DNA of 63,744 bases, counting the filler, from Eubacteriales bacterium (GTDB taxonomy: Bacteria > Bacillota > Clostridia > Oscillospirales > CAG-382), in the NCBI GenBank assembly GCA_045636665.1. It is 4 parts of 4 records of this genome, joined end to end, with 100 filler letters (N's around TTAATTAATTAA, not from the genome) between each part and the next. Parts side by side here need not be neighbours in the genome. Positions count along the whole stretch, not along the records: positions 31,067 to 56,489 come from JAZTXY010000117.1; 3 more parts are not named here. One strand, given 5' to 3'. The notes beneath the pieces are model-generated. The model had not been told where the DNA came from. It was given only the letters and a program-made list of their open reading frames with translations, and did no database searches. A program made the position numbers and the translations under genes. Below, piece by piece: positions 30,967 through 56,589 of this stretch. The number at the start of each line of letters is the position of its first letter. The first letter of the stretch is position 1.

Positions 30967-31066
30967 NNNNNNNNNNNNNNNNNNNNNNNNNNNNNNNNNN
31001 NNNNNNNNNNTTAATTAATTAANNNNNNNNNNNNNNNNNNNNNNNNNNNNNNNNNNNNNNNNNNNN
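30967..31066. other. Artificial contig linker
   Basis: N-run with central TTAATTAATTAA (stop codons in all six frames). Confidence 0.97.
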
Positions 31067-53996: not shown

Positions 53997-54145
53997 CGAG
54001 GTGTGGCGCAATCGGGGAGTTTTTCCGAGCACTGTCGGGGACAGATACAGCGAGGAAAAACGAGTGGCAGCAACTTGGCGATTGGCGAGCGATTTATAAT
54101 CGCGAAGATAGAGCCTTAGTTGCAACAGGAAGCGCGGGTGGTTTG
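53997..54145 (+). pseudogene. tRNA-Pro 5'-half pseudogene with an insertion in the D-loop
   Basis: CGAGGTGTGGCGCAATCGG ... AGCGCGGGTGGTTTG aligns with the adjacent tRNA-Pro CGGGGTGTGGCTCAGTTGG/AGAGCGGGTGGTTTG; similarity stops inside the anticodon. Confidence 0.75.
54016..54130. mobile_element. ~115-nt structured insertion (MITE/REP-like or intron-like) in the tRNA D-loop
   Basis: Two long imperfect hairpins; boundaries approximate; mobility is inferred. Confidence 0.55.
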
Positions 54146-54175: not shown

Positions 54176-54251
54176 CGGGGTGTGGCTCAGTTGGTAGAGC
54201 GGGTGGTTTGGGACCATCAGGCCGCAGGTTCAAGTCCTGTCACTCCGACCA
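54176..54251 (+). tRNA. tRNA-Pro (anticodon TGG)
   Basis: Cloverleaf: acceptor CGGGGTG/CACTCCG, D-stem GCTC/GAGC, anticodon loop TTTGGGA, GGTTCAAGTCC, encoded CCA. Confidence 0.97.
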
Positions 54252-54278
54252 AAAATCGCGGTTTTGACCGCAAAATCA

Positions 54279-54308
54279 AAGCCGTAAGGAGTATCCTTGC
54301 GGCTTCTT
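54279..54308 (+). terminator. Hairpin downstream of tRNA-Pro
   Basis: AAGCCGTAAGGA-GTA-TCCTTGCGGCTT. Confidence 0.65.
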
Positions 54309-54368
54309 GAAACTTTACTAACATTTTGTATTTGTTATACTAAGTCATAATTCTTATGTAACTTGTCA

Positions 54369-54397
54369 TTGACAATAGATAATCTACAATACATAAT
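54369..54397 (+). promoter_or_regulatory. Probable SigA promoter of the toxin-antitoxin pair
   Basis: TTGACA-17 nt-CATAAT. Confidence 0.55.
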
Positions 54398-54433
54398 ACT
54401 ATATAACAAATAATTCTAGGAAAGGAAATCGCT

Positions 54434-55822
54434 ATGGCAAAAGCAAAATATTATGCTGTAAAAAAGGGACACAAAATCGGTGTGTTTGAATCATGGGATG
54501 AGTGTCGAGAAGCCACAAGTGGCTTCTCTGGTCCGGATTATAGGGGCTTTTCAACTTTGGAAGAAGCGACTGCATATCTTAATGATGAAAACATATATAC
54601 GACTCAAATCGAAACCGATTTAAGTGAGGGATATGTAGTAGCATATACAGACGGTAGTTTTGACTCAAAAACAAATGATTTTTCATATGGAATTTGCATA
54701 ATCGACTTCGATAAAACAGAAACACTTCTCTGCAGTAAAATTTCTTATACCCAATTCGCTGAAAGCCGCAATATTGCGGGTGAAATCTTTGGAGTATTAA
54801 CTGCTCTTGATTGGGCTGTTTCAAATGGCTATGAGAAAATTAAGATTTACCACGACTTAGAAAGCATATCTAAATGGGCAACTGGAGAGTATAATGCTAA
54901 TAGCCCAATTTCTAAATACTTTGTAGAGACGCTTGAGCGTCGCTTCAACAATTATATTGAGTATGTATTCGTTAAAGTAAAAGGCCATAGTAACAATCCA
55001 TATAACGAAAAGGCAGATCAATTAGCGGCTAGTGCTTTTAGAGGCGAGAAAAAAGTGATTTCTGGTGCTAATTCATTTGCTGTAGACAATTTTGAGAAGT
55101 CAGATATTTATACAATCGTCGAGTTGATTAAAGAAGAATATCCTCAAATTAGCGATGAACGAAAAGCAATTTTAGGTGGAGAACAGATTAAACTTTATTC
55201 AAGCAAAAAAGTTTCCACTATGATCAAAATATATGATAACAAAAAGCTTCTTGTCCAAGGAAAACCCAATTCCATATATGAAATTGTATTGACTTATGTT
55301 TCTGAGATGCTAGGCGAAAAGAAGATTATTCCGTTAGTAAAACAAGCATACCGTATGAAAATTGACAAAGAAGCATTGGAATCTAACTATGCTAATCTCT
55401 GTGCTAATGTCCCCGAAACATACAGTGAGAGCATAAAAACGTTAATTAGACAGGCGTTAATTAATCTAAACGGGTATTTTGAAGCCGAAGAGTATGGACA
55501 ATATGCCTACCCTGCATTAAGAGCATTAGAGGGACACATTAAGTACTTGTTATTCAAGCATGGTATCACTATCGATAAAAGTTTTAATGTTTTTGACGGT
55601 AATCCAGCCGATGGGTATACCTTAACTACTCGAGCCATATGTGATCCTGACAAAACAAACATTGAACAGTGTTACAATTATTATGTAAAAACAAGGCATA
55701 AAATCTTCCATTTTGGAGATATACTTGGTGCAACAGATAACACCTATTTAATTTCCTCAAAAAATGAAGCTGATGAAATAATCAAAGAATCAATAAGGTT
55801 AATAAATAATTCTGTATATTAA
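54434..55822 (+). CDS. Fusion protein: viroplasmin/RNase H1 hybrid-binding domain + RNase HI + RnlA/LsoA-family HEPN toxin
   Basis: KYYAVKKG..G.F.SW.EC...GF.GP.Y.GF; YTDGS, N.AGE, YHD, VKGHS..YNE.AD.LA; KLLVQGK; YPALRALEG.IK; HEPN RHKIFH. Confidence 0.85.
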   Translation: MAKAKYYAVKKGHKIGVFESWDECREATSGFSGPDYRGFSTLEEATAYLNDENIYTTQIETDLSEGYVVAYTDGSFDSKTNDFSYGICIIDFDKTETLLCSKISYTQFAESRNIAGEIFGVLTALDWAVSNGYEKIKIYHDLESISKWATGEYNANSPISKYFVETLERRFNNYIEYVFVKVKGHSNNPYNEKADQLAASAFRGEKKVISGANSFAVDNFEKSDIYTIVELIKEEYPQISDERKAILGGEQIKLYSSKKVSTMIKIYDNKKLLVQGKPNSIYEIVLTYVSEMLGEKKIIPLVKQAYRMKIDKEALESNYANLCANVPETYSESIKTLIRQALINLNGYFEAEEYGQYAYPALRALEGHIKYLLFKHGITIDKSFNVFDGNPADGYTLTTRAICDPDKTNIEQCYNYYVKTRHKIFHFGDILGATDNTYLISSKNEADEIIKESIRLINNSVY

Positions 55823-55844
55823 ATATCGAAAGGGGTGAAACGGA

Positions 55845-56219
55845 ATGTCTAATGAGATAAATAAATTCGAGTTAATTTGCTATTCAACAGGACAATATCA
55901 AGGCCAAGTTATTTGTTTGTCTTACGAAAGCATTCACTCCTATATTCATATTGTTGAAAATGAATTATTAAAAAATAACATACACCGAGCGAACATACTT
56001 ATTGATCAATTGCTTATAACAGGTAATAATAAAAATCGCTTCTTATCAATCGAGTTTGACAACGGAAACTTCCTTTTCTCAACAGCAATAAATATCAATG
56101 CTGATGATATATATAGACAATTTACAATTAGTCATTTAAAGAAAAGGAAAGATATACTAACCAATTCTATCTTAACACCACAACAAATATCGTTGATTGA
56201 AAGAGGATGTATCTTTTGA
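55845..56219 (+). CDS. RnlB/LsoB-family antitoxin
   Basis: ILIDQLL.TG...NRF....FD.G pattern typical of RnlB; 124 aa directly downstream of the RnlA-like gene. Confidence 0.78.
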   Translation: MSNEINKFELICYSTGQYQGQVICLSYESIHSYIHIVENELLKNNIHRANILIDQLLITGNNKNRFLSIEFDNGNFLFSTAININADDIYRQFTISHLKKRKDILTNSILTPQQISLIERGCIF

Positions 56220-56239
56220 ATTTCCCTCTGCTTAAAAGC

Positions 56240-56272
56240 GCACTGCACGTAATCCGTGCCAGTGCCCTTTTT
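56240..56272 (+). terminator. Terminator of the toxin-antitoxin operon
   Basis: GCACTG-CACG-TAATC-CGTG-C-CAGTGC plus T-tract. Confidence 0.65.
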
Positions 56273-56439
56273 CTGTTTTTTTATTCGGTTTTAACACACT
56301 CTTATATCTTTACCTATTTCTAAACTTCACAAGTTTTAGAATATATGATAACTTTCATACATTTGCCATCTAAAGACATATAGTTAGTACAAGTTGTTAT
56401 AATTTGTATCTTTTCTTTGTTTACTCCCCACCAACCATT

Positions 56440-56468
56440 GAGGGCGCCGTTACTCGGCGCCCTCTTTT
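56440..56468 (+). terminator. GC-rich terminator hairpin at the islet's right edge
   Basis: GAGGGCGCCG-TTACT-CGGCGCCCTC-TTTT. Confidence 0.75.
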
Positions 56469-56489
56469 AGTTTTGCTTTCTCTTCTGCG

Positions 56490-56589
56490 NNNNNNNNNNN
56501 NNNNNNNNNNNNNNNNNNNNNNNNNNNNNNNNNTTAATTAATTAANNNNNNNNNNNNNNNNNNNNNNNNNNNNNNNNNNNNNNNNNNNN
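56490..56589. other. Artificial contig linker
   Basis: N-run with TTAATTAATTAA. Confidence 0.97.

Follow-up and report, generated by a model that had tools for sequence, protein, structure and literature searches.

The window, a stretch of 63,744 nt, consists of several MAG contigs with N spacers between them, and a two-gene operon lies near the end of one of these contigs. The toxin ORF (54434..55822, plus strand) encodes 462 residues and the antitoxin ORF (55845..56219, plus strand) encodes 124 residues; the 2 ORFs, each preceded by a ribosome-binding site, are separated by 22 nt. The contig stops at position 56489, 270 nt past the operon; therefore, the rpsR-ssb-rpsF genes printed after the locus belong to another contig and are not its neighbours. 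The features are as follows:

54176..54251, plus strand: tRNA-Pro(tgg) (ARAGORN; Rfam tRNA, 65.2 bits), left edge of the variable cargo slot
54252..56409, plus strand: low-GC cargo segment of ~2.16 kb with the toxin–antitoxin operon (GC content, homology breaks)
54369..54397, plus strand: promoter-like site, TTGACA/17 nt/CATAAT (consensus scan, 11/12 matches)
54434..55822, plus strand: toxin gene, 462 residues, with hybrid-binding domain (HBD), RNase H, RnlA NRD, and HEPN (Pfam, AF2, Foldseek)
54446..54577, plus strand: HBD (Cauli_VI / RNase H1 N-terminal), residues 5–48 (Pfam)
54635..55036, plus strand: RNase H catalytic domain, residues 68–201 (Pfam, PDB match)
55070..55312, plus strand: RnlA NRD (TBP-like domain 2), residues 213–293 (Pfam PF15935; LsoA/RnlA alignment)
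55370..55774, plus strand: RnlA DBD / HEPN nuclease domain, residues 313–447 (PF19034, PF18869)
55845..56219, plus strand: RnlB-family antitoxin gene, 124 residues (PF15933)
56240..56282, plus strand: hairpin then T-run after the antitoxin gene, likely operon terminator (direct reading of the sequence)
56410..56489, no strand: conserved right-hand flank, right edge of the slot (same-genus genome matches)

The promoter-like site, identified by pattern match alone, lies 37 nt ahead of the toxin start. The right-hand flank contains a G+C-rich terminator-like hairpin (56440–56464); the hairpin at 56240..56282 is absent from the list of the automatic terminator scan. Rfam returned the tRNA alone at the locus. 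A suhB/mmgR match (56405–56480), whose 23.8 bits fall below the gathering score of 41, was set aside, and a 13-nt palindrome over the -35 box was dropped as a candidate operator, as it was seen in 0 of the 46 loci outside the source genome.

Pfam assigned 4 consecutive modules to the toxin, and all matches of the toxin and the antitoxin lie above the curated cut-offs. These modules are (i) an HBD (Cauli_VI, PF01693; residues 5–48, E = 5e-18, 65.5 bits), which an earlier note on this DNA had placed at about residues 4–50 of the 462-residue ORF and which matches the HBD chains of yeast and human RNase H1 (1qhk and 3bsu); (ii) an RNase H domain (RNase_H, PF00075; residues 68–201, E = 1e-9, 39 bits against a cut-off of 25.8), which matches PDB 2kq2 (E = 1e-11); (iii) an NRD (RnlA_toxin, PF15935; residues 213–293, E = 6e-8, 33.4 bits against a cut-off of 27), which was aligned to LsoA and RnlA; and (iv) a DBD/HEPN region matched by both RnlA-toxin_DBD (PF19034; residues 313–427, E = 6e-15, 56.2 bits against a cut-off of 27) and HEPN_RnaseLS (PF18869; residues 351–447, E = 5e-8, 33.7 bits against a cut-off of 29). 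The TBP1 domain (RnlA_toxin_N, PF19417) had no match in the toxin at E values up to 1. Together with the antitoxin, the locus matched all 4 families that the note had named (Cauli_VI, RNase_H, RnlA_toxin, and RnlB_antitoxin).

The RNase H site of the toxin is complete, with the DEDD residues and the conserved His (D73, E117, D141, H185, and D195), as the note had read from the motifs YTDGS (position 71), AGE (115), YHD (139), KGHS (183), and KAD (193). In the HEPN domain, residues R363, E366, R421, and H426 align with R255, E258, R318, and H323 of RnlA, the last 2 lying in the RX4H motif RHKIFH (position 421). The C-terminal half matches RnlA and LsoA, and the reading of this half as an RnlA-like HEPN region thus stood; the RX4H motif, however, is not terminal as had been described, and 36 residues follow it. 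The 5 RNase H residues as well as R421 and H426 are invariant in 35 of 35 homologues (43–79% identity), among which 25 have R and 10 have K at position 363, and all 35 have E at position 366. Y7 and W21 of the HBD are likewise invariant in the 35 homologues, and 32 of them have K or R at position 37; we take these 3 positions, from the human HBD structure, to be hybrid-contact residues. Among 49 distant full-length representatives (25–66% identity), the RNase H site is complete in 45 (46/50 counting the toxin itself), and all 49 retain R421 and H426 (50/50 counting the toxin itself). The RNase H site is multiply degenerate in 4 of the 49 while their HEPN site is intact, so RNase H catalysis is not a requirement throughout the family.

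The AF2 model of the toxin (pLDDT 88.9, pTM 0.81) had as its top Foldseek matches the NRD–HEPN part of RnlA (7aex, TMt 0.71) and an RNase H1 (4e19, TMt 0.84), and the best structural matches of its RNase H part were the RNase H1 of Halobacterium, LC11, and human. The 124-residue protein, which the note had described as RnlB-like and 22 nt downstream, matches RnlB_antitoxin (PF15933; residues 22–111, E = 2e-17, 63.8 bits) and the solved RnlB (6y2p_C, E = 0.0037), and the spacing is exact. An RnlB homologue lies 15–36 nt 3' of the toxin gene in all 11 related loci that have downstream DNA. The predicted complex of NRD–HEPN with the antitoxin had a weak score of 0.32 (best control, 0.12), with agreement between runs over at least 0% of contacts and a partner pLDDT of at least 77; of 157 solved complexes, 116 reach this mark, as do 2 of 215 mismatched pairs, but at 0.60 or under the solved complexes that reach it number only 18 of the 157, alongside both mismatches. 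Because a like complex (6Y2P) has already been solved, any pass may reflect memorisation by the predictor.

The toxin–antitoxin pair is accessory and is probably horizontally acquired cargo in a variable slot. The GC content of positions 54260–56430 is 33.1%, and that of the remaining contig is 44.5%. The toxin had no full-length copy among the 24 same-genus genomes searched or among 16 genomes from other families of the order; in 398 other genomes of the class, 2 copies were fused and 1 was split, with no others seen. The right-hand element is conserved at 81–93% identity in 11 of 60 same-genus genomes; homology with relatives restarts at 56407–56410, and 2 genomes (G011 and G016) have the same tRNA-Pro upstream of this element. 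In sister species, different low-GC cargo occupies the space from this tRNA-Pro to the right-hand element, and the slot cargo of one of them encodes a DEDDh-BRCT protein matching PADLOC PDC-S48 (E = 3.8e-33), a candidate defence gene. The slot argument is built on this comparison of the tRNA-Pro and right flank of relatives, and not on a candidate empty site in one X2 contig, which joins 54248 to 56410 with a shorter side of 28 letters, under the reliability bound. The 2.2 kb contain no visible integrase or att repeat. A search of the contig for att-like copies of the tRNA 3' end in direct orientation gave none, and its 4 short repeat families look fortuitous. The upstream M42-type peptidase gene has orthologues in G011 and G008 but was uninformative for synteny, as the gene order beyond it differs.

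Variants 90–97% identical to the locus, with the coding region open, were assembled in contigs from 4 sequencing runs of 3 studies (best word share 0.25; contig depth over the coding region 3–6), which covered the flanks at 54279–54375 and 56219–56412 thinly or not at all. The 24 runs listed include no RNA run, and contigs are incapable of showing transcripts.

The fused architecture accounts for 49 of the best 150 representatives at 50%-identity clustering, and NCBI annotation already names such toxin–antitoxin pairs. The toxin itself is 100% unique to its own cluster, and the closest cluster besides is 79% identical to it. The genes around homologues vary in kind: they are defence-like in Lachnospira, transposon-adjacent in 2 MAGs, and ordinary housekeeping genes in others. 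No PADLOC 2.0 model, which the note had suggested consulting, matches the toxin, and the antitoxin has only a chance-level match (RT_IX, E = 0.018); DefenseFinder includes an RnlAB model, according to the lactococcal phage-test paper. HBD–RNase H, a three-domain RnlA, and RnlB are encoded by 3 adjacent genes on plasmids of Lactococcus (pUCCL630D and a plasmid of L. lactis ZFM559) and Carnobacterium (pDC01-2). In a published phage test, the RnlAB of pUCCL630D gave no protection in L. cremoris against the phages tested; the construct was without the RNase H gene, and we found no other phage trial of relatives that have a dedicated RNase H gene. In a collection of 50,697 phage records, none covers 80% of the toxin, and the 360 records that match it do so over the HBD–RNase H part alone.

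RnlA–RnlB is a textbook anti-phage toxin–antitoxin pair, and we know of no mechanistic explanation for its reliance on host RNase HI. According to the available part of Naka et al. 2017, E. coli RNase HI binds the NRD and stimulates RnlA, is required for the action or recruitment of RnlB, and the E. coli RnlA–RnlB relatives restrict T4 dmd mutants; what the note had cited as established for this system agrees with that part. The locus is probably a two-gene type II toxin–antitoxin/abortive-infection module, an RNase H-fused RnlA–RnlB acquired as cargo just downstream of tRNA-Pro, in which RNase H would act in cis. By analogy with the E. coli system, RnlB would bind and block the HEPN dimer; host shutoff by a phage would then let the labile RnlB decay, so that HEPN would degrade mRNA and the infection would be aborted. 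HBD–RNase H may do in cis the two things that host RNase HI does for E. coli RnlA in trans: stimulate the toxin in association with the NRD and assist the recruitment of RnlB. It may also replace the substrate-binding role of the missing TBP1 by guiding the toxin to duplex RNA or RNA:DNA hybrids, where it would cut the RNA strand. With the RNase H module in cis, the system would be independent of the host RNase H repertoire.

A further reading, which we advance only tentatively, is that a dedicated HBD–RNase H is an obligatory third part of RnlAB, whether fused as here, adjacent as on the Lactobacillales plasmids, or borrowed from the host as in E. coli, and that the binding or cutting of phage RNA:DNA hybrids (phage primers, R-loops, or reverse-transcription intermediates) gates HEPN. 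If this is true, the locus would encode an abortive-infection enzyme that senses hybrids, not a passive antitoxin-decay module, and this would account both for why E. coli RnlA depends on RNase HI and for why the lactococcal test was negative.

It is also conceivable, though unlikely, that the RNase H module serves chiefly, without catalysis, as a scaffold or regulator that docks on the NRD and recruits or places RnlB, with HEPN as the sole effector and no hybrid sensing. Such a role would accord with the E. coli RNase HI, which works through NRD association and is needed for RnlB recruitment in the part of Naka et al. 2017 cited above, with the 4 of 49 representatives that retain an RNase H domain with a wrecked catalytic site, and with the pTM of 0.81, which suggests a fixed domain arrangement in the model. 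However, the 35 close homologues all keep the 5 catalytic residues unchanged, 45 of the 49 distant ones have the full set, and HBD Y7 and W21 are conserved; in most lineages, the source lineage included, this conservation speaks for catalysis and hybrid binding being under selection.

We regard it as rather improbable that the pair is chiefly an addiction module stabilising mobile DNA through post-segregational killing, without a role in phage defence. Full-length or split versions do occur in 6 plasmid records, some beside IS elements, integrases, or relaxases, TnpV and HTH_17 genes adjoin 2 homologues, and the lactococcal RnlAB had no protective effect. By contrast, the present locus is chromosomal, in a 2.2-kb slot without visible replicon or transfer genes and for which a sister species has a candidate defence gene; the E. 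coli relatives restrict T4 dmd mutants (Naka et al. 2017, as above), and the lactococcal negative was obtained with the RNase H gene omitted. Addiction and phage-defence roles are not mutually exclusive.

That the pair is a decaying, non-functional remnant is very improbable: in related loci L013 and L014 the toxin gene is interrupted and the antitoxin intact, but here both ORFs are intact with ribosome-binding sites, a promoter-like site, and a likely terminator, every catalytic residue is present, and the 90–97% identical variants are open in 4 runs of 3 studies. It is scarcely credible that the protein is the housekeeping RNase H1 of the organism, extended at its C-terminus by a regulatory region, since the genome encodes a separate canonical RNase HI (rnhA, 155.6 bits; 26% identical to the toxin over 78 residues only), no full-length toxin was found in the 24 same-genus genomes, the GC content is foreign, and the C-terminal half appears to be a complete HEPN toxin with a cognate antitoxin, even though the class is rich in standalone HBD–RNase H proteins 35–47% identical to the N-terminal 200 residues (399 genomes scored, 76 with a match, most of these matches of the standalone kind); the note's own concern that the gene might be conserved housekeeping RNase HI is thus not sustained.

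Returning to the RNase H-fused RnlA–RnlB module, the fused form is a common natural architecture and, because all parts are on one polypeptide, the cleanest material for the question of what RNase H does, that is to say, for telling apart the roles of activator, antitoxin recruiter, substrate finder, and second nuclease. The series of RNase H in trans, adjacent, and fused predicts that two-gene constructs cut from three-gene operons are incomplete, which touches one published negative and the way defence-finding pipelines bound 'RnlAB'. The tRNA-Pro slot is a small, well-bounded hotspot that could yield further defence genes in the genus.

Comparison with known systems revealed that (i) the locus shares with E. 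coli RnlA–RnlB and LsoA–LsoB (RNase LS; type II toxin–antitoxin, anti-T4) the NRD and HEPN/DBD, the 4 active-site residues, the toxin-then-antitoxin order, an RnlB-family antitoxin, and a matching fold, at 15–22% identity to RnlA and LsoA; (ii) compared with E. coli RnlA, TBP1 (PF19417) is gone from the toxin, with HBD and RNase H in its place, and whereas E. coli RnlA draws on host RNase HI in trans, the toxin here has RNase H fused to it; (iii) the three-gene plasmid operons have the same modules in the same order and are 28–32% identical to the source locus, but their RNase H is a separate gene and their RnlA retains TBP1; and (iv) type 1 RNases H with an N-terminal HBD, bacterial and eukaryotic, share the HBD and the DEDD catalytic domain, but are free-standing replication/repair enzymes, whereas here this unit is the N-terminal half of a toxin.

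The fusion of viroplasmin and RNase H to RNase LS, in an operon with RnlB, was reported by Anantharaman et al. 2013 (Biol Direct 8:15); the note had likewise placed this architecture in comparative surveys of HEPN proteins. That computational study proposed, in its available part, that the fused RNase LS targets RNA in DNA–RNA duplexes, and a built-in activator with a hybrid-coupled mechanism, as the note put forward and as we would infer, is essentially that hypothesis. Between the locus and the fusions in that part of the survey, the architecture, operon, and targeting idea are the same, with no difference in kind; TBP1 is a mark of the E. coli subtype and not of the RNase LS family in the breadth in which that survey draws it. 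In the literature we found no bench work on any fused RNase H–RnlA member, in line with the note. Judged by its sequence, the locus is a further member of this catalogued, common RNase H-fused RnlA–RnlB variant. What is new here is that the published lactococcal negative test omitted the RNase H gene, together with the series in which RNase H is supplied in trans, by an adjacent gene, or as a fused domain.

The gene pair that the earlier note read as an RNase HI–RnlA fusion toxin with an RnlB-like antitoxin is real, and that reading is correct. The 2 ORFs are located exactly where it placed them, separated by a gap of 22 nt, and each of the 5 Pfam domains of the toxin exceeds its curated cut-off:

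54434..55822, + strand: toxin gene, ORF of 462 aa
toxin aa 5–48: Cauli_VI, the RNase H1 hybrid-binding domain (HBD)
toxin aa 68–201: RNase_H
toxin aa 213–293: RnlA_toxin (NRD)
toxin aa 313–427: RnlA-toxin_DBD
toxin aa 351–447: HEPN_RnaseLS
55845..56219, + strand: antitoxin gene, ORF of 124 aa

The 124-aa protein belongs to the RnlB_antitoxin family (Pfam, E 1.8e-17) and matches the solved RnlB structure 6y2p_C (E 0.0037). The toxin sequence matches the solved structures of an RNase H-related protein (2kq2, E 1e-11), LsoA (5hy3, E 1e-9) and RnlA (4i8o, E 4e-6), as well as the RNase H1 HBDs 1qhk and 3bsu. Pfam gave no match in the toxin to TBP1 (RnlA_toxin_N, PF19417), the place of which is occupied by the HBD–RNase H module. 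The AlphaFold2 model of the toxin (35 homologues in the alignment) is confident, with a pLDDT of 88.9 and a pTM of 0.81; a Foldseek search with it puts RnlA chains first (6y2r, E 6e-13; 7aex, covering NRD–HEPN, TMt 0.71) and type 1 RNases H next (4e19, TMt 0.84). The predicted complex of the toxin NRD–HEPN region with the antitoxin lends weak support to their binding: it scored 0.32 (runs 0.01, 0.43 and 0.32) against 0.12 for the best control, as a 1:1 model, a stoichiometry that may be ill matched to the 2:2 complex of E. coli.

Both active sites proved intact. The motifs listed in the earlier note, YTDGS, AGE, YHD, KGHS, KAD and RHKIFH, lie at residues 71, 115, 139, 183, 193 and 421, respectively. 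The RNase H residues D73, E117, D141, H185 and D195, the HEPN residues R421 and H426, and the HBD residues Y7 and W21 are invariant in all 35 homologues (43–79% identity). Toxin residues R363, E366, R421 and H426 align with R255, E258, R318 and H323 of E. coli RnlA, which matter for RnlA according to the mutagenesis of Garcia-Rodriguez et al. 2021. A harder conservation test was an exhaustive search of 1.84 billion representatives, which returned 6555 matches at E ≤1e-3 (324 at E ≤1e-30). The best 150 of these 6555 comprise 49 full-length fused proteins, 74 with the HBD–RNase H part only, 10 with the C-terminal part only, and 17 truncated or other proteins. Among the toxin and the 49 full-length representatives (25–66% identity), all 50 proteins retain R421 and H426, and each RNase H position is retained in 46 to 49. 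All RNase H exceptions fall in 4 representatives in which that site is degenerate at several positions and the HEPN site is intact. Because the positions of both sites are kept in at least 46 of these 50 proteins, both nucleases appear to be under selection in most lineages, including that of the window, and the HEPN nuclease would be the indispensable part.

The 4 exceptions (homologues P0127, P0144, P0149 and P0189; 2–5 of the 5 catalytic positions substituted) can serve for comparison as naturally occurring "RNase H-dead" forms. In the same best 150 matches, 20 representatives longer than 350 aa align to toxin residues 1–210 only, their HBD–RNase H part being joined to other C-terminal regions (lengths ~400–415 aa and 572–581 aa); additional nucleases built of two parts may be among them.

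That the gene is merely the conserved housekeeping RNase HI of this genome is not borne out. The source genome, 1.8 Mb in 139 contigs and 80% complete, has on a different contig a separate gene for a canonical RNase HI (155.6 bits), which is only 26% identical to the fused module over 78 aa; no second RnlA was found in this genome. Searches with the toxin turned up no full-length match in 24 genomes of the genus and 16 from the order's other families, several of these genomes being incomplete. The toxin has matches at E ≤1e-20 in 76 of the 399 genomes scored in the class, nearly all through standalone ~200-aa proteins consisting of the HBD–RNase H part only; the full-length form occurs only in the window's genome and 2 others (G137 and G173), and a fourth genome (G114) has a split pair.

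The pair is located in a bounded slot between tRNA-Pro(tgg) (54176..54251) and a conserved element of 80 nt at the contig end (56410–56489); 11 of 60 genomes of the genus share this element at 81–93% identity. The GC content is 33.1% in 54260–56430 versus 44.5% in the rest of the contig. The homology of relatives to the window breaks off at the tRNA end and returns at 56407–56410. In one relative (G011), the same tRNA lies ~1000 nt upstream of the conserved element, with a 288-aa ORF between them (L041:569–1435); in another (G016) the distance is ~700 nt, with 2 small ORFs of 77 and 115 aa (L044:869–1499). These ORFs belong to no known family, both intervals have 30–31% GC, and their cargos could be new defence or toxin–antitoxin genes. 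The interval of a third genome, G449 (L040:1586–2998), encodes a 471-aa RNase_T (DEDDh) and BRCT protein that matches the PADLOC candidate system PDC-S48 (E 3.8e-33). Since other low-GC cargo lies between the same boundaries in sister species, the toxin–antitoxin pair is one of several alternative cargos of this slot. A metagenome contig linking 54248 to 56410 carries little weight because its shorter side has only 28 letters. No integrase or att repeat was seen at the slot on this contig. An 18-nt stretch just upstream of the tRNA (54128–54145) is 89% identical to part of the tRNA body (54193–54210) and is perhaps left over from an earlier copy of the tRNA. The contig ends at 56489, 270 nt past the stop codon of the antitoxin gene; the genes for ribosomal proteins and ssb that follow in the window lie on another contig, beyond the N spacer. 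The spacers (30967–31066 and 56490–56589, the second with a short linker) join contigs of one MAG, and genes across them are not physical neighbours.

Among named genomes, the pair also occurs in Ruminococcaceae, Oscillospiraceae, Acutalibacteraceae, Fimenecus, Lachnospira pectinoschiza M83 and a Methanomassiliicoccus MAG, and an RnlB-like ORF of 119–126 aa follows the toxin by 15–36 nt in all 11 loci with DNA there. Two of these loci (L013, 8001–9312; L014, 7463–8849) have an intact RnlB gene beside a toxin gene that is broken near the NRD, with residues ~210–270 of the query missing or out of frame; the toxin may be decaying there and the antitoxin orphaned. The neighbourhoods are mixed. The Lachnospira locus (L012, 79–15068), which encodes a type I restriction R-like protein, AAA_5, a Macro-domain protein, a dynamin-like GTPase and a 403-aa RNase III + dsRBD protein, looks like a defence island; TnpV and HTH_17 genes flank 2 other loci (L004 and L006). 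The archaeal pair (L005:7953–9765; toxin 46% identical) lies on a 383-kb contig among ordinary archaeal genes, including that of ribosomal protein L15e, and looks like a bacteria-to-archaeon transfer within the same habitat. None of 360 matching phage records covers 80% of the toxin, and 6 of 35 matching plasmid records do; a Priestia plasmid carries the fused form with RnlB.

The survey of Anantharaman et al. 2013 describes the RNase LS HEPN domain as fused in most cases to an N-terminal RNase H and viroplasmin domain, places such genes in an operon with RnlB, and suggests that the fused proteins are directed at RNA within DNA–RNA duplexes. Therefore, the architecture and the central hybrid-targeting hypothesis are already in print. 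Proteins of these kinds appear at NCBI as "viroplasmin family protein", "RnlA family toxin" and "RnlB family antitoxin". Searches of the openly accessible literature found no bench work on the fused form, only this survey and the E. coli RnlA work. Because the architecture is catalogued and widespread, the pair is one more member of it rather than a new category; what makes it valuable is the experimental access it offers to the link between RNase HI and RnlA, which is still unexplained. Added here are a three-gene series, the loss of TBP1, the gap in the published phage test and the slot for cargo beside tRNA-Pro.

The same modules occur as 3 adjacent genes on the plasmids Lactococcus pUCCL630D and Carnobacterium viridans pDC01-2 and on a Lactococcus ZFM559 plasmid: an HBD–RNase H protein (244–306 aa), a three-domain RnlA retaining TBP1, and RnlB. 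According to Grafakou et al. 2024, cloned lactococcal "RnlAB" gave no protection against the phages used. The primers given there map to the rnlA start and rnlB stop of pUCCL630D (L050:3428 and 4896), and the RNase H gene of this operon (L050:2492–4896) ends 15 nt upstream of the rnlA ATG, so it was left out of the construct. The negative result counts against a defence role; in our reading the construct is predicted to be incomplete.

The sequence evidence establishes a predicted two-nuclease toxin, with the HBD and both the RNase H and HEPN sites intact, encoded with a cognate RnlB as putative mobile cargo. By homology to the E. coli system, RnlB would probably block the HEPN dimer, phage-induced shut-off would deplete the labile RnlB and free the HEPN nuclease, and the ensuing mRNA decay would abort infection. 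In E. coli, the host's own RNase HI attaches to the NRD and boosts RnlA, and RnlB needs it in order to act (Naka et al. 2017); TBP1 was found necessary for substrate binding by RnlA (Garcia-Rodriguez et al. 2021). We tentatively propose that the fused module might replace both: it would take over from host RNase HI the tasks of activating the toxin and recruiting RnlB, and from TBP1 that of binding the substrate, bringing the enzyme to hybrids; gating of HEPN activity by hybrid binding is speculative and rather unlikely. Whereas E. coli RnlA uses TBP1 for substrate binding, the window toxin has the HBD–RNase H module instead; the three-gene plasmid systems keep TBP1 and encode RNase H separately. 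RNase H placement thus forms a series: in trans in E. coli, adjacent in the three-gene plasmid systems, and fused in the window.
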